Part shown: positions 8,797 to 23,899 of the stretch, in pieces
How the letters are laid out: the number at the start of each line of letters is the position of its first letter
Position numbering within the stretch: position 1 is the stretch's first letter
Origin: Octopus vulgaris
Lineage: Eukaryota
Assembly (NCBI GenBank): GCA_951406725.2
Contig: OX597822.1
Location: 59,086,001-59,150,000, forward strand
Direction: 5' to 3'
DNA length: 64,000 nucleotides
Position numbers and translations under genes: made by a program
Notes under the pieces: model-generated
Told to the model about the DNA's origin: nothing
Databases searched by the model: none
Seen by the model: only the letters and a program-made list of their open reading frames with translations

Positions 8797-9115
8797 TAAC
8801 GAATATATATGTATGTATGCTTGTGTCTAGATGTAGATGTATTTATTTATAAATATTTTAACAGTCAAAGAAATTTGATAAATCACCTCTTGCTTAATAT
8901 ATTCTCAGAGAAAAATTTAAGTCGGACAACTGTTATCAGATATGGAAGATCCGAAAAGAATTAGGTTTTATACACACACATAGAAATACACACACACACT
9001 CTCTTTCTCACACACACGCACACACACGTAACACGTTTATGTAAATATATGCATGAATGTATGTAGATGTGTGTATTTGTGTGTGTGTATGTGTGTATAC
9101 ATATATGTACGTATA

Positions 9116-9179
<64 letters not shown>

Positions 9180-9537
9180 TATAATTTCGTATATGTACAA
9201 ATACATACGTACGTACATACATACATATACACACACACACATATATATATATATATACATAATACATAAATATATAGCTATGCGTGTGTGGATACATGAT
9301 ATATATGTGTGTGTGTGTGTGTTTGTGCACATGTATATATATATCTATGTGTGTGTGTGTGTGTATGTGTGTATGTGGCCATACTGCATACATATAATAT
9401 TGAAATATTACTCAGGAGTTGGTGAGTTGAGCGGGATGTGAACTTTAGAATGATGTTGACATTTCAATGTTTATGGTTCTTGTCAAATGAGATCTGATTC
9501 TGATTACGTAAAACATGCTTGCATACACACATACATA

Positions 9538-9601
<64 letters not shown>

Positions 9602-9864
9602 AAACACATACAGTTTTACATAGACCCTTGCTGACAAACACACATAACATACTTTGCACAGGCATATGTCCAAAAGAAACCGAGATTTTAAAACCAGTGC
9701 ACCAACAAACTGGCGCAGCATAAACATGGATGCAGTGCTGTGTAGGCTGGTGGTGATATTCTGTCTAATAATGACTGCATCCCGCTATATCAGCCGGTCA
9801 TGCTTGGTTGAACGTTGTGTATTTGTCAAATTGTTGCAAGTTCAACTGTGATGGCTTTAGGAAG

Positions 9865-10560
9865 GCAACATGTATGTGTGAAATTTTGTTCCAAATTGCG
9901 AAAATGCTTTAGTAGAGATTTTTTATAATGTTGCAATAAGCGTGTCAGAAATATTGTTTGTTCTGTATGCAATGTCACAAATAATATCACAACGATTCAC
10001 ATCTGGAAGAATACCCACGAAAGGCGATTTCAAATCTGAACTATCTTCGACGACAGCAGTGGATGATCCCATTAGGAAAATGTGCACTGTGATCCGTGAT
10101 TGGGATCCGTGAAAGTCGTTGCTTGAAAGTCGTTTCCAGGAAGATTCCGAAGAAGTAAGCTTCTTCAAAAAATTATATCACATAATTTTAAAGGAAAATG
10201 AAGATGCATTATGTTGCTGCAAAATTTCGGTCGCTGAACAAAAAGATGAATAAAAAGAGAACCGAGTCACTTGTCAGACAAGGGCCATCTGTTCATTTGA
10301 ATACTGATGAAAATGTTTTGAAAAGTGGAAGGATATGTGTGTATGGCCCTGATGTTGAAAGAGGCAGACATCACTGTAGGTTAGATAAGCGCATTCCCCT
10401 TTCCCAGAACTGGTGTGGTAGAGTCGCGCAATGTGAAGGGAATATTGATCGTCTTTCTGAACTAGAAGGGCGTTGTTCATCATGAGTTTGTTCCACGTGA
10501 TCGGACAATAAATAAAAGCTTTTACTTAGATAATCAGGGGCGTTTTTGGAAGGCGTATTG
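9865..10560 (+). mobile_element. Degenerate mariner transposase relic
   Basis: CVKFCSKL, LKMHYVAAKF, TDE...CVYGPDVE (WVYGYD.E-like), GVVHHEFVP...TINKSFYL. Confidence 0.75.
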
Positions 10561-11083
10561 TGGCGTGGTCAAACAAAACATATGTAGAATGTTGGTAAAT
10601 CATAAGTAAAATTGCCAGAGAATCTGGTACCTTTCGAACTGCCATAAAGTCTCAGACATGTAAGATATAATGCGTCCTAAGCCGATCAACTAATCTCTGC
10701 TGCTCACTTAAATTGTAGTTTGGAACACATATTCTCTGTCTGCAATAATTCTCAAGCTCATTATGGCGTTACAATATAGAGTAAAATGTCATTTGTGATT
10801 GGTTGATGAACAACTGGGAAAGCGATATTCTAGTCTGAGAAGTTTCGAACTCACGAGCTTCTGCGTTTTGATATTCTATCGTATTTCACAAAGACTTTGA
10901 ATATCAACTCGTATGCAATCAATATTTCGAAAGCACATGATATTTCGTCGGTTAAGCTGGCTCCTTGGGAACATGAAGTTGATCTTAATAGTTTAATCAA
11001 GTAGGAGGATCTGTAGGTCCTATTACCTTTGAAGTCCCTGACGGACATGAGGCAACCGAATGAAATTTTAAACATGAAGATGA

Positions 11084-11532
11084 TTCGTGTTAGATTGACA
11101 GTATACAACCATTCTATTGCCCCACCACCGTACATGTCTCTATGAGAGATTTAGAAATTTAGTATTTCTGATTTTGATAATCAGTGAATAGACTTCACTG
11201 AAATTTAGATATATACATTGCGAGTTGAGACAAATATCATCAGCTGACCGGTGTATGCTACTCTAGGCCGACGAAGGACAATCATCCTGAAACACGTGTC
11301 CCTAGATGCAGCTCCGGGCGGCTGGGGGTGTTTGTCTCCCCTTCGTAAATGTATATAAGGACACAGGAAAAATGTGTCAAATCCATCGGGAGGCGTCGAT
11401 GCTTCCTAGGGCTAAACAGCGGTGGTGTACCCCCCTACTGTCACGTTCGCGTTAGATTGACAGTATACAGCCATTCTATTGCCCCACCACCGTACATGTC
11501 TCTACGAGAGATTTAGAAATTTAGTATTTCTG

Positions 11533-11533
<1 letters not shown>
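11084..11533 (+). mobile_element. Retrozyme-like unit (about 1.24 copies, 362-bp period) with hammerhead
   Basis: About 85-bp direct repeats at 11086-11170 and 11448-11532, an internal hammerhead, and a 3' end running into (TA)n. Confidence 0.8.
11262..11306 (+). ncRNA. Type I hammerhead ribozyme (CCGACGA core, U4C variant)
   Basis: TCTAGG-CCGACGA-AGGA-CAATCA-TCCT-GAAA-CACGTG-TC-CCTAGA: perfect stems I and II, palindromic stem III, GUC. Confidence 0.8.
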
Positions 11534-11590
<57 letters not shown>

Positions 11591-12110
11591 GTGTGCGTGT
11601 ACGTGTGAGTGTGTGTATATGTGTGTTTGTGTATGTGCACATGTCTGCATTTGAGTATGTGTTCATACTGAATTAACCAAGATGTGTGAGGAGACGTCTA
11701 CGTAGTCGCTCCACCTGCTAGAAACCGTAGCTATATTTCTCTCAAACCACACATTATGGTCTTAGATAAAGAAGGATACACTGGACATTGCAGCCGCGGC
11801 TGGAAAATCTTTCAGACATTGGTCAACATGGTCATACCTGAATTGAATCTATACAACAATATCATCATCATAATCATCGCCATAATCATAACAAATTGAC
11901 TATAAAGTCTTACTTTTTCTATTACATCACACATACCATGACGTCATTATCATATATTACGTCATACATTTTTTTACGTTGGTTGCCAAATATCATCTAT
12001 ATTTTACTTCAAAGTCAAATTCCAGTTACTTCCTTCACATAAAGTAAGATGCTATCTTATAAAACATAAATAGCTATAAATAATATTCTTTCGGAATTCT
12101 GTGTTAACAG

Positions 12111-12167
<57 letters not shown>

Positions 12168-13489
12168 TTTGGAATAAGTTTACCTGTTGTATGTTTTAGC
12201 TTCTTCCAAACAAAATAAGGTTTTCTTTAGACCTCATGAGATTTTCACTAGATGGCTTCCGCCTTAGTAAAAGCATTTAAATACGCAAAATTCAGATACT
12301 TATAAAACAGAACACAACACAAAGAAGAACATTAATACACGCAAAGTTCAAAATAATTCAAACGTAAACTGTATTTAAACGGTAATAGAAAGAGTGTCAG
12401 TTTTGCTTCGATCGCTATTCAAAAGTAACTCATTCGTTTAAGTTGAATCCCGGAAAAACAAAGCATTTGGGAGAAGTATATTACAATGGACAATGCTTCT
12501 TTTACGTCGGGAAATATCGAGAAGTTCGCATAGAAGAGAGTAACACACCTGTCCTGTGTACAACAGAGGAAGTTTCCATATGCCCACAAAAAGAACAGTT
12601 AAAATAAGCACTGGCCACTATTTAAAGAGATGTCATTTTCATCGACCGGAATGGAGGAATATGGAGGTGTGAAGACGAAAGGTCGAGGCGGTATGCTCAC
12701 ATGGTCGTACCACCTATATGTGAGATGGTAGAGCACAGAGATCACAGCTGTGGACATTGATTCGGACATTGGATCTTGATTTTTCGTCACCGTCGTTGTA
12801 CCGTATTAGTAGGTTGAGAGCCAAGGTTACCCAAAGACGACGTCTGTTCGGTTGACTCTTGTTGGATCCATTAGTCCGACATTCCTATGACTGATAAAAC
12901 ACTACGATATCGAAACACCGGGTGTCACAGAGTCCTCTTACGCTAATTAATTGAGTGTGTTATGAGCACACATTCGTCTTAAAGGAGTTGTTCTCCTATA
13001 GCATAACAGTTATTACACTGTGTAACGCGATTTTTGTCTTTGGGTAGCAACTGTAATTTCCTATTTGCTTACCTCTAGAAAGTATGGAAAGTGGCTAATA
13101 TTTCATTCAAACTTTGCTTTTGTTAGATTTACCTAAACCCCAAAGAATCCTTCTCAACACATAGCTATGATGCTCCTCCATTACTCTTGCTCATGATCAG
13201 AGATGCGCATATTGACATAACCAAGTGGCTAAGATCACGTAACTGACAAGTAAATATGTGGATGTTTTCTATAACGATATTTCTGCTTCAGCAACTTAGC
13301 GATGAATTTGTCTGGAATGTAATAGAAAATAGGTTAGTTTCAAAACATTGAGTCCACGTTGCAAAAACAAAATTTGAAGGGAATAGTAGTAATTTCCTTT
13401 GGTTTCTTGACAGAATCAAATAGGAAATAGCACTTACTGAACAAAAGCAAAACAAAACAAAACAAGACAAAAAGAATTGAAATTTTGTA

Positions 13490-13532
<43 letters not shown>

Positions 13533-13839
13533 ATATCATATGTTGAATCTGACACTTCGATTAAGATACCCTTCTTTCCCTGGAGGTCTTTAACAGTAAT
13601 GCCTATTAAATTCACAGTGACAACCCTGTGTGTGTCTGAAATGGCAGAGGCAACGACATACACATAAGCACCCGTCTCCATGAAAATACAGCAACAAGTC
13701 CAATGTTTAACATCATTTTACTTTGAAAATATTTAGAAGGAAATGAATAAGTGAATTCATTGACTTTATTTATTACGCACACAGGGAAAATGTAAAATGT
13801 CGGATTTAAAAGCCATTATTATTTTTATTGTTTTCTCTT

Positions 13840-13950
13840 TATCACAGGTTTTGTTGGAGCTCCTGGAGTCGTGAATGCGTAGCAGGCTTACTACCTACAA
13901 CCTACGGTACTATGCTATTCGTCCTTTCAGCTATGAAATACTTTTCTGAT
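13840..13950 (-). mobile_element. Short 3' end of the R4/Dong-like family
   Basis: CAGGTTTTGTTGGAGCTCCTGGAGTC...GCGTAGC...CCTACGGTAC matches 19693-19760. Confidence 0.6.
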
Positions 13951-13962
13951 TATTATTATATT

Positions 13963-14020
<58 letters not shown>

Positions 14021-14039
14021 CCATCACCACCACCATCAC

Positions 14040-14114
<75 letters not shown>

Positions 14115-14212
14115 TACTATTATTGTTGTTGTTATTATTATTATTGTTTTTATTATTATTGTTATTGCTATTGTTGTTATTATTATTGTTATTGTTGTTG
14201 TTGTTGTTGTTG

Positions 14213-14256
<44 letters not shown>

Positions 14257-14306
14257 GCTGTTGTTATTGTAGTCGTCATTTTGTTGTTTTTGCTCTTGTT
14301 ATTATC

Positions 14307-14358
<52 letters not shown>

Positions 14359-14420
14359 ATGGTGATGGTGATGGTGATGGTGGTGGTGGTGGTAGATGTC
14401 GTCGTCGTCATCTTCATCGT
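13950..14420. repeat. Compound trinucleotide microsatellite (ATC/ATT/GTT/GTA/GTG)
   Basis: Seen directly in the sequence. Confidence 0.95.
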
Positions 14421-14955
14421 CATCCTCGTGGTTGTTGTTAGTGATGGTAGTGGAAGTAGTGATTATTGTTGGTATTTCTGGTCGTGGTGATCGTGGTGCT
14501 TCAGTCATGTTCTTCTTGTGCTGATAAACCAAATGCCATCAATATACGCCACCCTTCATCCTCCTCTTCTTGTAGCTAAATAAAGAAGTACTATCATTAT
14601 TGACATTTTAAAATATGTGTGTGCATGTGTGTCTGTGCGTGTTTGTAAATATGTGCGTATGTGTATATTTGTGTGTGCGTATGTAAGTCTAAACATATAT
14701 ATATATTCAATATATACATATATTGATAAATGCACGCATACATACATATACATTTACATATGTACAAATATATATATGCGCAAATGTGTATATGAATATA
14801 TATTTGTATGTATGTATGTATGTATGTATGTATGTATGTATGTATGTATGTATGTATGTATGTATGTATGTATGTATATATATATATATATATATAAATA
14901 GTAATGCAATACAAGAGTATTGCTTTCCAGTAAATAATAGCCCGTGAGGGAAAAT

Positions 14956-15365
14956 TATACATAGAAGTAAATATATGGTACAACGAAGTACCGATATTTA
15001 CTGGAAAATAGCGAACGTAATAAATACGACGCTAATGTATAGCTTCACCGCGTATGTACTAGCAAAAATGCGTCTGTGCAACAAACTTGAAAAAATTGTC
15101 TTACCTCCAGGAAGAACATCTGAAAGATGAAATACCTAGAAAGGGATAATGTGGTACCGGTTTCAGATTTTTCAAGATATGTCTGCACACATATACTTGA
15201 TTTATCTTCATCAGCCAACATATACCTTGACAACATTTCAAATGTTGCCGCATCAATGCCAATACACTCGACTGAAACGCCAAAACGCTGACAGAACGAG
15301 AACAGTGAAGAAGTTTCCAGTAAATATCGGTACTTCGTTGTACCATAAATTTACTTCTATGTATA
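14956..15365. repeat. About 52-bp inverted repeat (14956-15007 / 15314-15365) bracketing a hammerhead module; PLE pseudo-LTR-like
   Basis: TATACATAGAAGTAAATATATGGTACAACGAAGTACCGATATTTACTGGAAA and its reverse complement with one mismatch. Confidence 0.8.
15149..15221 (-). ncRNA. Type I hammerhead with extended stem II
   Basis: Minus strand: ATGTTGG-CTGATGA-AGAT aaa TCAAG TATATGT..ACATAT CTTGA aaa ATCT-GAAA-CCGG-TA-CCACAT. Confidence 0.75.
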
Positions 15366-15417
15366 TATATATAACAAATGAAAGACAAAAGATGGAATAT
15401 ACGAGAATATATTATTA

Positions 15418-15521
15418 ATCACAACAATTGTTTCGACATATCTAGCATCGACTCCTCTTGTGGGACACGCAAAAACTGGTTCAAGAGTATCCAGTGGTGC
15501 AGAGATATCTCGTCGGGTGAT
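15418..15521 (-). ncRNA. Type I hammerhead with long stem II in the PLE 3' region
   Basis: Minus strand: ATCAC-CCGACGA-GATAT...ATGTC-GAAA-CAATTG-TT-GTGAT, with palindromic stem III (ACAATTGT) and a GUU triplet. Confidence 0.7.
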
Positions 15522-15939
15522 AAATATATAAAAAGTCTCGTTAAAATGACTGTTCCATAATGCACCTTTCCGTTTTGTAGAGAGAAAAACAGCCATACGG
15601 AGGAAAATTCTTCATATATATAGAAGACCCAAAAATAAAATTGCAGAAGACAAAAAGAGAAACGAACACTTAATCCAGCGAGAAAAGTATTGAAAATAAC
15701 CGTTAACCGATATGGATGTATAAACGCCCTCAGGCAAGCAGCATGGCACGAGTACACACGCTCATACAAGCATTAGCAAAAATGTGAGCATATGCACACG
15801 CGAGGTTAGGCGCACTCATAATTACAAAGCGAGTTAGATATTTAGTAAGTGTTTAGAAGAACGGGGAGGTTTAAAATAAATTTAAGTCATCCATACCTTA
15901 AAGTAAAATAAAATAAAATTACACTAAGTTAACGGTTAC

Positions 15940-16737
15940 TCAAAATTCATTCCCACTGTATTGTGCGAAAGTACATTTATATGCGTGTAGGCATCTCGAT
16001 ATTCTTTCAGAAATTCTATTAAGTATCTTTTCGTTAGTCCACAGAATAGACAGGGATTCCTCGGATCAGAGACATCATCTCCTGGAAATTGCACTGAATG
16101 GTTTTTCATGTCTAACTATGGACCAATTAATGTAGTATTTCGTATTAGCCTCCTTCAGTCGCCATATAAAGTCTGTCAAAGATGTCGAATGTCTCTTATT
16201 GATTGACCTAAAGCTGGCAACAGGATTACGATAACGATTCTTAAATGAATCAGCTGTCTGCCCAATGTAAACATAGGGCCCTCCCCTTGTGTGCACGGTA
16301 CATTTATATACAAGATTTGTGCTCATACAGAGATTAATCAAAGGACATTTTGATTTATCCCTGCATGAGCATTTATCATTTTTATATGTACATAAAGCAG
16401 TCCTGACTTCATTTACTGGCGTTGTTATCGTGCTAGCTGTACCATGAGTATTTCTACTACTACAAATTGGTCGAAGTTGATGATTATAAATGCTGTTTAC
16501 ATCTCTTTGGTTGGCATTTAGATGTAAATGTTTGCTAGATCCAATAGGTGGGTTATTGAACCGTTGTCGCATTTTGCTATTGTTTATGCGATGCACAAGC
16601 TGCTCCAAATTAGCAGAGCTAGCGTAGGATACCTTCACGGTGTGGTGATTAAAAATAGCATGGTACCGATTGGATTTAGGAAAACACTTGTCCAAAGCAG
16701 CAAAAAAATTTCCAGCGATCCTGGTTGAAACATGCAA
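15940..16737 (-). pseudogene. PLE C-terminal linker/GIY-YIG domain with in-frame TGA at both Cys of the CxxC motif (putative Sec)
   Basis: Reads ...KPFSAISRR*CL*SEESLSILWTNEKILNRISERISRCLH... and matches the recalled family pattern KRCxLCxxEK...LLNKRSE..KCRH. TGAs at 16075-16077 and 16066-16068. Confidence 0.75.
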
Positions 16738-18499
16738 ATTGAAAATTGGGTTGAACCAGAGGACATCCTGATTCCTATAACTGTTGTTAGGCTTATTTGA
16801 TCGAGTGTGTTGTACAGGATTGGAACAAGCAGTTGAATTATTATATCACATGTGTCTATGAGTTTTCTTTTGTAGATCATTAACATGACCAATATCTTCG
16901 AGCCGTATTCTTTATCCGAGTGATTTCTCAAACGGTAACGTTGTGGTGGCATACGATGTGTATCGCAGTTGAAGTAATTACCAGTGTTGCTTAAGCCTGC
17001 ATCTTGTATATATTAAATTCTATCATGGTACCCAGTCTTAGCTAGAGCATCATTATAATAAGATGCATGAGATTCGAAAATTTTACTGGTAGCAGATAAT
17101 CTAGAAAGCCTAGTAGAAATATTCTTAACTAGTTCCCGTATAATCGAGGGTGGATGGTTAGATTCTACGTTAATGTACTTAATATGATCATTCGGTTTAT
17201 GAAATGGTTCAAATAATCTAGAATCAAGACAGAAGGTAGTGTCAAGAAAGTTCACTCTACGATAATCTTTACCTATAGTAATATTTAGTCCTAAATTTTC
17301 GAAAAGTCTAAAGAAATTTTTCCTTTGCCTTTCTAACTGTATTTTACTACTTCTATCTAGAAAATGTAAGGTGTTATCCCTATATATAGACTCCTTGTTA
17401 ATTCAGGAAAGGAAGACTGGATTAATGGAAGGATATATATTCCGACTAGGTCACTGACCTGAGCAGAATCGTGTGAGCCCATTGCTGTATCAAATTCATT
17501 TTCCCTATCTAACCTACTCCATAATTTACCATCAAAATCTACTAAAGTGGCTCGCGCAGCAAGAATAATATCTATTTCGCGTCGGGACAAATCTGAATTT
17601 TTCATGCTAAAAATCAGGGCTTGATTGAGAACGATTGGGTTGATAGTGGCATAGTAGCTCTCTATATCAATTTGCAAGAATTTACAAGTTTTATTAATTT
17701 CAAGAAGCTTGAACCATCGAACCACCTCTTGGGTATCAGACCAGAGGGCTAATCTAATTTTAGACTTAAGGACGAGTATTACCCTGTCAATGATACTTTT
17801 ACTAATAATGCCTATATCGGATTTAGATGGACAAATCAATCTAACTGAGGAGTCGATAAGAAAGTTAGGTTTATGGTCCTTAAACAAAATCCGGGGTTTT
17901 CAGGGGATGTAGGGTTCTGTTCTATCATCAATGGCTAGATCTTTGACGATTTGTAGCCCTGTATTGTTGAATCTCTTTAATACGTCATTACTAGCATGTC
18001 TATATTTGCTCCATAATTCCTTCCTAATCATAGACTTATATAGATCAATATCAACTTGTTTTGTCCGCTGGTACAAATATCCCCGGAGCTTTCTTGAAGT
18101 CGACAAGTAATTTTCTGATTTTCTGCTGATGTATATTACACCGTCCAGGGTACTTCCTGAACTTCACGTTATTGACAATACTATATAATTCTTCTTCAAA
18201 TCTGGTTAGATATTGGTTTGTCGGTGGGTTCCTTCTAGATTTGAACACTTTTTTTAGTAGGTCACTATGTTCAGGTTTGTCGTTAGGTTTACGCTCCTTG
18301 TCGAAAAAGAAAGCTTTCCACCGCATTTTACGCACAAATTGGTTCGTTTTCTCCAAGAGATCCCGTATATATATATATATATATATATATACGAGGTCTG
18401 ATCAATAAGTATCTGTTTTTCAGCCCATGTGACCAATACATTGTTGTTGCTGTTGTTGTTGTTATTATTATTGATATTATTGTTGTTGTGGTCATTGTT

Positions 18500-18531
<32 letters not shown>

Positions 18532-18532
18532 T

Positions 18533-18588
<56 letters not shown>

Positions 18589-18599
18589 GCTATTGAATG

Positions 18600-19060
18600 T
18601 TACTTTAGTTAGAAGGGATGTTGTTTTGAAGTTTGGTGACGACGAGTCTCAAAAACAATCTTTCACAGGATTCTTGCAGCAAACAGGATGGTACTCTTTT
18701 ACAGGTCAACAATACGTGTCTCAATTCCAATATTTTTCAGCCTCTTAGTTAGTAGTTTTGGTGTCTCTGCCAAGTGCACTAATTACCACATGAACAATTA
18801 TCATCTTCGGCTTCCGCAATCTCTTCATCTTTCTGACTAGGTCCTCAAATTTCTTAGTTTTCTCAATGTCTTGTATATCCACTCAATTATGGTATGGAAT
18901 TGCAAAAACTAAGATCTTACACTTGTTAGTTTTATGCCTCTACACTCGTATTTAGTATCCTTACTTCAATTGAATGGTCAGTCTCATGGGGAAATGTTAT
19001 AAAAACCTGTAATTATCATTCGCCTTCACAGCTTGTAACTCATGTTCATTATGATATTAT
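18600..19060 (-). mobile_element. Highly degenerate RLE non-LTR fragment
   Basis: IEKTKKFEDL...IIVHVVISALG...KSTILFAARIL remnants next to (TAA)n. Confidence 0.55.
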
Positions 19061-19084
19061 CGTTATCATTCAGTAGTCTTATTT

Positions 19085-19559
19085 TTATCACGTGCTTTCA
19101 CTTCACTACCGAGCGCAGCTCTGTGTGCCTTGAGTATGTGCTCTGGTTGGTTGTGATGCTCTTATGCTTACTGTATTGAAAGTGTTTTGCGTAGGATGTG
19201 TGCAGTGCCCAGTAGTGCAATTTTCTGTATGTTATATATATTTTGTAAGTCCTGTTGTTTTTGTTATATATTTGTTTGAATATCTTTTTATCATATCTAA
19301 TGCGCCTACTATGATAGGAATTGTTTTTGTTTTTAGATTCCACATTCGAGTTACCTCTATTTCCAGGTCTTTGTATTTTGAAAGTTTCTCCATTTCTTTT
19401 AGAGAAATGTTGTCATCTGCTGGTATTGATACATCAATTAGAAAGCATTTTTTCCTTTCATGATCTCTGACAACTATATCTGACATATTGGCCTTAATTT
19501 CTCTATCTGTGTGTATTGGCATATCCCAAAGTATAGTTGCTTTCTCGTTTTCTGTGACC

Positions 19560-19560
<1 letters not shown>
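19085..19560 (-). mobile_element. R4/Dong-like non-LTR retrotransposon 3' end (restriction-like endonuclease)
   Basis: ILWDMPIHTDREIKAN.SDIVVRD...CFLIDVSIP.D.NIS.KE.EKLSKYKDLEIE..RMW....IPIIVGAL...IQKIALLGTAHILRK, adjacent to (TAA)n. Confidence 0.88.
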
Positions 19561-19658
<98 letters not shown>

Positions 19659-19689
19659 ATTGTTGCTATTGTTGTTGTTATTATTATTA

Positions 19690-20135
19690 ACTCAGGTTTT
19701 GTTGGAACTCCTGGAGTCTTGCATGCGTAGCGGGTTTGCTGCCTGCAGCCTACGGTACCGTGCTATCTGTTCTTCTCAATTATCTAATACTTTTCTGATT
19801 GTTGTGGCCATGCCAAGGAAGCAAGACTTTTCTAACAGTTCTATTAATCTCTCCATTCCGATTTCCTTTGTATTCCTCTTGATGCCTTCTGATACTGTTT
19901 TCATGGACCCAACAATAATTGGTACTATCGTCTCCTTCTTAATTTTCCATAGCTAGGCTATTTCGTACTTGAAAGCATTTTATATATATCTATTTTTTGC
20001 TTTCCTTTTGACTAACCGTGGGTAAAACAGCACGCAACATCAATTATATAGCACATGTGGTGTATCATGTCCACCGCCATTAGCTCCGGTCTGTTATACT
20101 CTAGCACCTGATGTGATTGGATTGGAAAATCCCAC
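19690..20135 (-). mobile_element. Degenerate R4/Dong-like RLE fragment
   Basis: IVPIIVGSM...KSCFLGMATTIRKVLDN*. Its 3' UTR resembles 13840-13950. Confidence 0.7.
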
Positions 20136-20195
20136 AGGATTTTGCTGGTCTCCAACTCTGCCACTCACTGCGGTTTGTGCTCATACTTCCTCTTG

Positions 20196-20256
<61 letters not shown>

Positions 20257-20527
20257 AGACAGCACTTTCCGCACAGTTTCCAATGTAGCTTTCGCTATCT
20301 CAACGTGTCACCACAATTTGTGGTTTTGGACAAGTCTAAGGCGTTCACTTGCGATGTGTGCAATGGTTTCGTACACTCTATTACAGATGCGACACAGTGG
20401 AGACATTTGCTCATTCCTTAGGCTGACCCTTCAATTTGTGGCCAAAGCTGGGTCTTGCGCTGCCAATGTGGTATCTGCACTCTGTTTTTGAGTGCTCCTT
20501 TCTTCAGCCAGTCCCACCTATGTTTTC

Positions 20528-20600
<73 letters not shown>

Positions 20601-20612
20601 AATATTAATATT

Positions 20613-20830
20613 CAGGCGGCACACCGGCAGAATCATTAGCACGCCAGGCAAAATGCTTAGTGGCATTTTGTCTATCTTTACGTCCTGAGTTCAAATTCCG
20701 CCGAGGTCGACTTTACCTTTCATCCTTTCGGGTTCGATGAAATAAGTACCAATTTTGCACTGAGATCGATTACTTCGTCTATCCTCTTGCCTAAAATTTC
20801 AGACCTTGTACCTATAGTGGAAAGGATTAT
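20613..20830 (+). mobile_element. Family-M SINE
   Basis: GAGTTCAAATTCCGCCGAGGTCGACTTTACCTTTCATCCTTTCGGG. Confidence 0.75.
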
Positions 20831-21037
20831 TATTATTATAGACACAAAGCTATGTTTTTAAAAAAAGAAGGTCTAAAAGCACGTAACAACCTGGCATTTA
20901 CAACAGAAAATTTAGACAAATACGTACAATTAGATTAGCGTGTTTAAATGTTGAACAGAGCACTATCAATTATATATGTCTAAATATATCTTTCTATATA
21001 TGTATATATTTATTTATTTATATGCATACACCCCTCC

Positions 21038-23599: not shown

Positions 23600-23688
23600 A
23601 AACCTACGTCCGTTTCAGAAAATATCAAGGGGCTGTAGGGACAGACCGTATTCTACTCTATCGAATAATATTTCCTTCTTCAGGGTTT
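23600..23688 (-). ncRNA. Type I hammerhead with 11-bp stem II and a large loop
   Basis: Minus strand: AAACC-CTGAAGA-AGGAAATATTA...TGATATTTTCT-GAAA-CGGACG-TA-GGTTT, inside a TA-flanked segment of about 23230-23810. Confidence 0.75.
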
Positions 23689-23899
23689 ACTGCTTGGAGC
23701 GAAGTTCGTTTAAAATTCTGCATAATGAATTCCTGTTGATGGGTGGACGTCGAATGATTAAATAATTAAAAATATAACTGGCGAAATTGATACAGGAACA
23801 TCTAAAATTTATATATATATATATATATACACACACATAAACGCTACTATCGAATAACGTAAATGAGTGCTCAGTACTTCATTGTTGGATAAATGTTCT

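Follow-up and report, generated by a model that had tools for sequence, protein, structure and literature searches.

Two elements with predicted long-domain-II hammerheads, a Hydra-clade PLE and a non-coding 428-nt unit, probably inserted independently at one (TA)n run of Octopus vulgaris

Results

Organization of the locus

In the window, by which we mean the whole 64,000-nt stretch of Octopus vulgaris DNA analysed here (contig OX597822.1, positions 59,086,001 to 59,150,000), two repeated elements meet at a (TA)6 run (15362–15373), the target common to both insertions. Element A (15374–18365, minus strand), assigned to the Hydra clade of PLEs by its motifs, domain order and (TA)n target, is a 5′-truncated, decayed copy with its 3′ UTR and ends at the tail-less 3′ end of its family. 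Element B (14897–15365) is a copy of a 428-nt unit and consists of two arms. The direct arm (14897–15313, minus strand) comprises almost one full unit and runs to the tailed end beside a second (TA)n flank (14876–14897), and the inverted 5′ arm (15314–15365, plus strand) corresponds to unit positions 321–372 and forms the tail-less end; the “tail” itself (14897–14955, minus strand) spans the interval from one fixed 3′ end of the element to the other (14956 and about 14897). The 52-bp inverted repeat of the window (14956–15007/15314–15365, 98% complementary) is one such inverted 5′ arm of B. A type I hammerhead was predicted in each element, both from the motif and from its copies: hammerhead A (15418–15521) and hammerhead B (15149–15221), the latter lying between the arms of the repeat. 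The initial annotation had described the two motifs in much this form, one with a stem II domain of about 75 nt and the other with a bulged 43-nt stem II inside the 52-bp inverted repeat, separated by a short (TA)n, and all of this was recovered, with both motifs on the minus strand; it had also placed both at the 3′ end of the Naiad-like PLE, which has to be revised, as the motifs belong to separate elements and the PLE is of the Hydra and not the Naiad type. Pieces resembling other retrotransposons lie on either side (19100–20000, minus strand, and 12650–13300). Copies were sought in a genome of 2.8 Gb, and the loci compared below are best matches or motif-picked, so that the counts are not those of a random sample.

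Element A and its hammerhead

Translation of 15300–18500 gives an ORF, broken by stops and frameshifts, in which RT comes first and GIY-YIG last. On the minus strand, it carries the Hydra-diagnostic motifs RWK (18313–18323), DKT (18058–18065; DKA in Naiads) and the CxCX5C linker (16345–16371), and, at the C terminus, a GIY-YIG endonuclease without CCHH (16078–16311) that by eye resembles the published Hydra alignment. These are the features that, together with (TA)n targets, are given for the Hydra clade (Craig et al. 2021, PMC8557442), whereas Naiads are described there as having an N-terminal endonuclease, DKG changed to DKA and no canonical hammerhead. The (TA)n target of element A and its length of about 3.0 kb in the 5′-truncated state also agree with the under about 3 kb of Hydra elements. 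Pfam searches with six ORF pieces of the region yielded nothing useful and no GIY-YIG match, and a protein homologue search gave one unnamed match.

A genome search returned 2667 first-look candidates for copies of element A, and most of the endonuclease matches carry stops; on these sequences, family A is judged to be abundant and old. Its copies stop either at the end of the window copy or about 70 nt beyond, with (TA)n at both points. Contigs of the last 240 nt of A, from two presumed-RNA runs, pile up at 15358–15600 to a depth of 200–500, compared with under 40 upstream, and this peak may stem from one A copy lying in a transcribed gene.

Hammerhead A has the core CCGACGA (15516–15510), the triplet GUU, a palindromic stem III (ACAATTGT), a stem I of 5 bp and a domain II of 75 nt (15509–15435) with a 12-bp basal helix, and its predicted cut lies between 15423 and 15422. 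Among 60 loci, 55 stretches span the motif, leaving 54 copies after removal of the window duplicate. Position 4, which is U in the consensus, is C in 40 of the 54, and the dinucleotide at U4–G5 reads CG in 29, TG in 10 and CA in 10; as this spread is that of symmetric decay of an ancestral CpG, we infer that U4C is ancestral in family A and was fixed while the family moved. The last base of the cut triplet is U in 25 copies and C in another 25, and a small subfamily (5/54) also carries A9U. Hammerhead A is therefore a variant, differing from the canonical Hydra form in both U4C, which the initial annotation had not noted, and the 75-nt domain II. Hammerheads with U4C are less active in vitro, although viroids bearing it can still be infectious (Perreault et al. 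2011, PMC3088659); the change would weaken hammerhead A without necessarily killing it.

Because RNAalifold, applied to 46 copies (including one stray 1-base row), returned only three pairs, pairing was counted directly in the structures. In these 46 copies (eight of the 54, with deletions or near-duplicates, being left out), stem I, the basal helix and stem III are paired in 88–94% of cells (92% overall), and the subfamily changes preserve pairs, yet covariation does not exceed that of shuffles. The inner CTCTTG/CAAGAG pairing drawn by the initial annotation did not stand up among the copies: the hexamer CTCTTG is found in 2 of 54 (CTCCTG in 37), 44 of 46 rows break one of the six pairs, and the pairing, at 76%, ranks behind two alternative inner pairings (91% and 85%).

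Element B and its hammerhead

Element B consists of 428-nt units in head-to-tail order, and their junction is exact at 36 places, among which no two lie one unit apart on one strand. The longest ATG frame in three single units is 48–79 aa, and by its sequence the element is non-coding. A search with 14900–15370 gave 1777 first-look candidates, and three subfamilies were recognized: B1, to which the window copy belongs, B2 (83–85% identity) and B3 (about 70%). All three retain a putative intron-like GTAAGA...TTCCAG stretch (15001–15104, minus strand), and among 87 loci there was no intron-less copy and no locus with two whole units, although L133 has two complete hammerheads 428 nt apart. Contigs from the presumed-RNA runs cover both A and B and contain the head-to-tail junction of B; since this junction is also genomic, they are no evidence of circles, strand or level. 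Several arms at L008, L016, L095, L097, L131 and L144 begin at unit positions 217–223, beside the putative 5′ splice site, and these starts may mark a promoter or an RT stop.

Hammerhead B has the canonical core CTGATGA (15214–15208), the triplet GUA, the palindromic stem III ACCGGT and a stem I of 6 bp with one bulge. Its domain II of 43 nt (15207–15165) is built of 4 bp, a 3×3 internal loop, 5 bp, a bulge, 5–6 bp and a loop, and the predicted cut lies between 15155 and 15154. The motif thus has CUGANGA, GAAA and UH together with stems I–III, the core invariance being biased because the copies were picked by a motif overlapping the core. Of 10 readable B3 cores, 6 have C at position 4. A small group of B1 copies (L020, L027, L029, L030, L034, L035, L101 and L103) has a duplicated stem III palindrome, which could form a hairpin within a single RNA.

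In 58 of 76 distinct B1/B2 copies (18 truncated, gapped or stem-III-duplicated copies being left out), 97% of the cells are paired and five pairs show two-sided changes; the number of cells with such changes exceeds that in all 500 shuffles, whereas the number of pairs is matched by 421 of them. Across the three subfamilies (11 hand-picked rows), 9 of 25 pairs are two-sided, compared with at most two when the structure is slid, and the pair-level measure was reached by 16 of 500 shuffles. Stem I and each of the three domain II parts contain such two-sided pairs. The covariation represents few independent events, as it is distributed over three subfamilies; as the compensatory changes reach the distal hairpin, the whole domain II of B, whose architecture persists through about 30% divergence, appears to be kept folded. 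Conservation of the stems among copies, which the initial annotation had proposed as its test, accordingly holds strongly for B and for the basal stem of A, and fails for the inner A pairing that it named.

Insertion anatomy of element B

The arms of B end at unit position 372 or at about 428–436, with (TA)n next to them. The 87 loci contain 38 head-to-head junctions, 29 of them with both outer ends intact; 27 of these insertions have one end of each kind, two are tail/tail and none is tail-less/tail-less. Both tail/tail cases lie in one multi-arm locus (L008). When a duplicated locus is disregarded, one site per arm is seen in 26 of 28 insertions (P about 1.5e-6, assuming an independent even choice, for loci that are best matches or motif-picked). 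The inverted arm ranges from about 45 to over 600 nt and is often absent, and the copies are 5′-truncated and joined head to tail, mostly 1–1.65 units long, the longest arm being 703 nt. Fifty-eight arms cross the unit junction, five of them run beyond the upstream predicted cut, and L146 has two junctions; arms passing the cut, the two junctions of L146 and the two hammerheads of L133 together suggest that the templates of B are uncut multimers or circles. Element B thus displays the anatomy of a non-autonomous PLE, namely, a partial tandem, an inverted 5′ copy, an optional tail and a microsatellite target.

Search for an autonomous partner of element B

At L146 and L151, a 229-nt piece of B3 type (88%) passes, uninterrupted by a TA run, into the leader and beginning of a Hydra ORF (family C); in L146 (3020–3560, minus strand), the B3-type 3′ piece is joined directly to the start of the family C ORF, and the junction represents one locus. 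This suggests that either B3 RNA was copied together with C or B descended from the pLTR of C. However, B sequence is absent from all five family C 3′ ends inspected, and no ORF lies upstream of the hammerhead at 40 loci taken from 80 B2 motif matches, so that neither set contains an autonomous element with the 3′ end of B. In family C itself, an Asn-rich low-complexity insert precedes the endonuclease, and the 3′ end shows no clear hammerhead. A pair of hammerhead motifs separated by 2.7 kb, considered as a candidate for the partner, turned out to be a segmental duplication.

Hammerheads with a long domain II elsewhere

A strict hammerhead scan of 761 kb (overlapping, PLE-rich loci) gave 88 matches in 22 families and none in five shuffles; in 11 of the 22 families, domain II measures 42–96 nt. 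All 11 have (TA)4 within 250 nt downstream in the nearest member, compared with 33% of random positions. A looser scan of the window gave six matches (0–2 in ten shuffles) and missed motif B because its stem I is bulged. Rfam reported no hammerhead in window positions 9000–21000 at E up to 1, where only microsatellite-driven miRNA matches appeared, and none at the gathering score in four loci, nor any Rfam family inside domain II of A or B. By eye, the domain II interiors are unalike between families.

Families D and E, with domain II of 77 and 60 nt, respectively, adjoin Hydra-type ORF pieces. Family D (L146:3600–3760, minus strand, and L205–L229) is a Hydra PLE whose hammerhead resembles that of A in flanks and size, not in the interior; it was considered as a further U4C family, but 17 of 25 copies read TG and four CG, and U4 is mostly canonical. 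Family E (window 23600–23690, at 23683, minus strand) has copies 70–85% identical and Hydra-type RT pieces upstream at two loci. Family F (L255:1370–2500, equivalent to G000:C7:53857400–53858500, and L250–L269) is a non-coding tandem of a 470-nt unit, and L255 contains over two of these units. In its hammerhead, domain II measures 64 nt, stem III is a palindrome of 12 nt and stem II shows a compensatory change; the first-look candidates number 2304, and identity between copies reaches 99%. No long-domain-II hammerhead was tied to a Naiad, the further families followed being Hydra-type (E) or non-coding (F).

Two other hammerhead findings in the window may be mentioned. A third motif with the core CCGACGA (U4C), a 14-nt domain II and a palindromic stem III (11262–11307, plus strand) lies inside a repeated stretch ending at (TA)n, and three identical hammerheads with a U3–A8 core variant, spaced 362 nt apart (43779, 44141 and 44503, plus strand), form an array that looks like a classical tandem retrozyme.

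Discussion

The results described above make it quite probable that the locus arose by two independent (TA)n insertions, of an older Hydra-clade PLE and of a younger 428-nt element that a Hydra-type RT-endonuclease likely mobilises in trans; a type I hammerhead with a domain II of 43–75 nt is predicted in each. None of 29 other B1 loci runs on into A, and B is not present at the end of any of 58 other A loci (in L034/L035, B sits about 680 nt away). The two modules, which the initial annotation had suggested looking for singly or together in other PLE copies, thus occur separately, and its option of two families inserted at one TA site is borne out, except that B, as a non-coding unit, is not a second autonomous PLE. 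The same counts largely refute its other option, a composite pseudo-LTR in which A and B would be one element whose two hammerheads move together, and we regard this as very improbable. Both hammerheads of the window do lie on one strand, and at one further locus, L144, an A end (an 80-nt fragment) is likewise followed by a short TA run and then by a B2 arm; however, another B subfamily and other breakpoints are involved there, and the A and B families differ in age. As the ends of other hammerhead families also adjoin B at TA runs, the stacking recurs without being special to the A–B pair, and is ordinary for elements targeting (TA)n. Among the best 29 copies, identity to the window is 95.9% for B versus 88.2% for A, from which B appears to be the younger, and it probably arrived after A, in the TA run at the 3′ end of the latter.

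The anatomy of B fits the mechanism established for a lizard PLE, Poseidon_Ac (PAc), in which both strands are nicked and extended and the tail lies between two internal RT start sites (Frangieh et al. 2024, PMC11167929), and would add to it a rule of one site per arm. In the predicted course of insertion, B would be transcribed as more than one unit (a multimer or a circle), and a PLE protein would nick both strands of (TA)n. For each nick, reverse transcription would then begin at a different one of two internal sites, which lie some 60 nt from each other, and this two-site start would give a direct arm with the tail and a head-to-head inverted arm without it. The palindromic stem III may let two RNAs pair, the hammerhead cutting slowly, as a dimer or helped by protein, and its cutting would not be required for insertion. 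For the PAc element, the hammerhead cuts only with protein, cutting is dispensable for insertion, and the strands showed no difference in start site (PMC11167929).

Two other accounts of B deserve comparison with this PLE-type course. A 52-bp inverted repeat beside TA is what a MITE would show, that is, a TA-inserting non-autonomous DNA transposon with a captured hammerhead and the repeat as its TIR; yet the inverted arm can be as short as about 45 nt, exceed 600 nt or be missing, so that there are no fixed terminal inverted repeats, the repeat is not terminal on the tailed side of B, and the copies are 5′-truncated and head to tail. The variable arm length in itself excludes a MITE, to which we attach almost no credence. 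Closer to the PLE-type course is the view that B is a classical retrozyme, spreading through a circular RNA and rolling-circle reverse transcription by any available PLE enzyme, with no need for descent from family C. Monomer size, type I hammerhead and tandem units all fit the non-LTR retrozymes (PMC7229834; preprint 10.64898/2026.07.22.740005), and arms pass the upstream cut site, with two junctions at one locus. Nevertheless, none of the 36 exact junctions forms a pair one unit apart on one strand, and the longest arm, of 703 nt, is also explained by a linear read-through RNA from a partial tandem. The classical-retrozyme account is consequently possible but not the one we favour; it overlaps with the PLE-type explanation and differs from it only in template and ancestry.

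As for the hammerheads themselves, it is conceivable, if somewhat doubtful, that hammerhead A is a relic, already catalytically dead at the time when family A was active. The apparently ancestral U4C (CG 29, TG 10 and CA 10 of 54), the additional A9U of the 5/54 subfamily and the insertion of another PLE without hammerhead cleavage in vitro (PMC11167929) point in this direction, whereas the remaining core, stem I, the basal helix and the palindromic stem III are all kept, C4 recurs at window position 11268, in B3 and in some D and F copies, and viroid infectivity is compatible with U4C (PMC3088659). For the long domain II, the likeliest reading is a hairpin extension of loop 2 that is tolerated and stays folded to let the core form; in hammerhead B, the 3×3 internal loop sits at the place of loop 2 and may contact stem I. 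The initial annotation had supposed that the enlarged stem II hosts an extra functional element. Such a separately selected module, serving protein binding, dimerisation or a regulatory switch, would agree with the stem and loop lengths that B retains at about 30% divergence, with its compensatory changes past the first 4 bp, with the recurrence of a long domain II in 11 of 22 families, and with the finding that one PLE hammerhead tested together with its protein needed it to cut (PMC11167929). Against it, lengths vary from 42 to 96 nt, the interiors look unrelated between families, no Rfam family matches, and any long insert must stay paired simply for the core to fold; although the architecture of B is kept, we therefore consider a selected module rather unlikely. 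A still bolder and more speculative extension, which we hold to be improbable, is that hammerheads with a domain II of 40–100 nt are a large overlooked class and the rule in many Hydra PLEs and retrozymes of this lineage, that the extension serves to dock the PLE protein, that RNAs paired through stem III are copied from different start sites by an asymmetric RT dimer, which would account for the one arm with and the one without a tail, and that “hammerhead-less” PLEs, Naiads with spaced half-cores among them, have a ribozyme of this kind. Eight Naiads are listed with hammerhead half-cores 35–50 nt apart, and the relaxed core search of the same study allowed a spacer of 7–17 nt (PMC8557442).

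The present analysis touches on two questions: whether animal retrozymes are moved by PLEs, and what PLE hammerheads do. Animal retrozymes were defined, and PLEs named as their likely movers, by Cervera and de la Pena (2020, PMC7229834), and a PLE origin of vertebrate retrozymes was deduced from co-occurrence and pLTR similarity (Li et al., 2026 preprint, 10.64898/2026.07.22.740005). The link drawn in these two papers is thus one of co-occurrence and pLTR similarity, not of insertion anatomy, and element B, a retrozyme-sized unit with every PLE hallmark, supplies direct anatomical evidence that PLEs move animal retrozymes. The rule of one start site per arm can be tested in an in vitro PLE system. 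Judging by the survey, about half of the hammerheads in such genomes may escape descriptor and Rfam searches, a shortfall relevant to the view that certain PLE clades have none. The young families B1 (about 96% identity) and F (up to 99%) are a source of intact RNAs for cleavage assays, F being the best candidate. A literature search, mostly of non-subscription papers, returned no description of these families and none of Hydra hammerheads with a long domain II, though Repbase or Dfam may list them; as judged from sequence, what is of note is a structural variant of PLE hammerheads missed by standard searches, and a retrozyme-like element with the full PLE insertion anatomy.

Element A is worth comparing with the PLEs catalogued in PMC8557442. 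It is like the Hydra clade in its C-terminal GIY-YIG without CCHH, RWK, DKT, CxCX5C and (TA)n, and in the type I hammerhead at its 3′ end, of which stem III is palindromic. Ten of the 26 Hydra rows listed have U at the cut site, as does hammerhead A of the window, whereas position 4 is U in all 26 and C in family A, and domain II is at most about 26 nt in these rows (by eye), compared with 75–77 nt here. A likeness to Naiads exists in the (TA)n targets, partial tandems, inverted 5′ copy and tail; an N-terminal endonuclease, DKA and the absence of a canonical hammerhead set the Naiads apart, and element A has none of these. Minimal PLE hammerheads in which helix III is palindromic and activity as dimers is low have been described, and a circular template was considered possible (Cervera and de la Pena 2014, PMC4209133).

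Element B, in turn, resembles the animal non-LTR retrozymes, which are non-coding head-to-tail monomers of 170–970 nt with a type I hammerhead (PMC7229834, 10.64898/2026.07.22.740005), and differs from those described in its 1–1.65 units, PLE-type inverted arms, tail, (TA)n anchoring and long domain II. It is also like the non-autonomous PLEs of Chlamys (MRC1), which are non-coding, have pLTRs, are arranged head to tail and are moved by PLEs; those, however, are from a green alga (Chlamydomonas) and another clade, mostly without a canonical hammerhead, and their 3′ ends match an autonomous partner, whereas none was found for B (PMC8557442). In common with PAc, B would have two internal RT start sites bounding a tail, and for PAc nicking and extension of both strands and a weak, protein-assisted hammerhead are reported; the strands of PAc do not differ in start site in vitro, in contrast to the one site per arm of B, and the tail measures 30–40 nt in PAc and about 60 nt in B (PMC11167929). 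Finally, among the PLE-X hammerheads of spike moss, two rows flagged as non-canonical have a domain II of about 50 nt (File S2, PMC8557442) and hence offer a precedent for a long domain II in a PLE hammerhead; these rows come from plants and another clade, whereas in the loci surveyed here the long domain II characterizes about half of the families.
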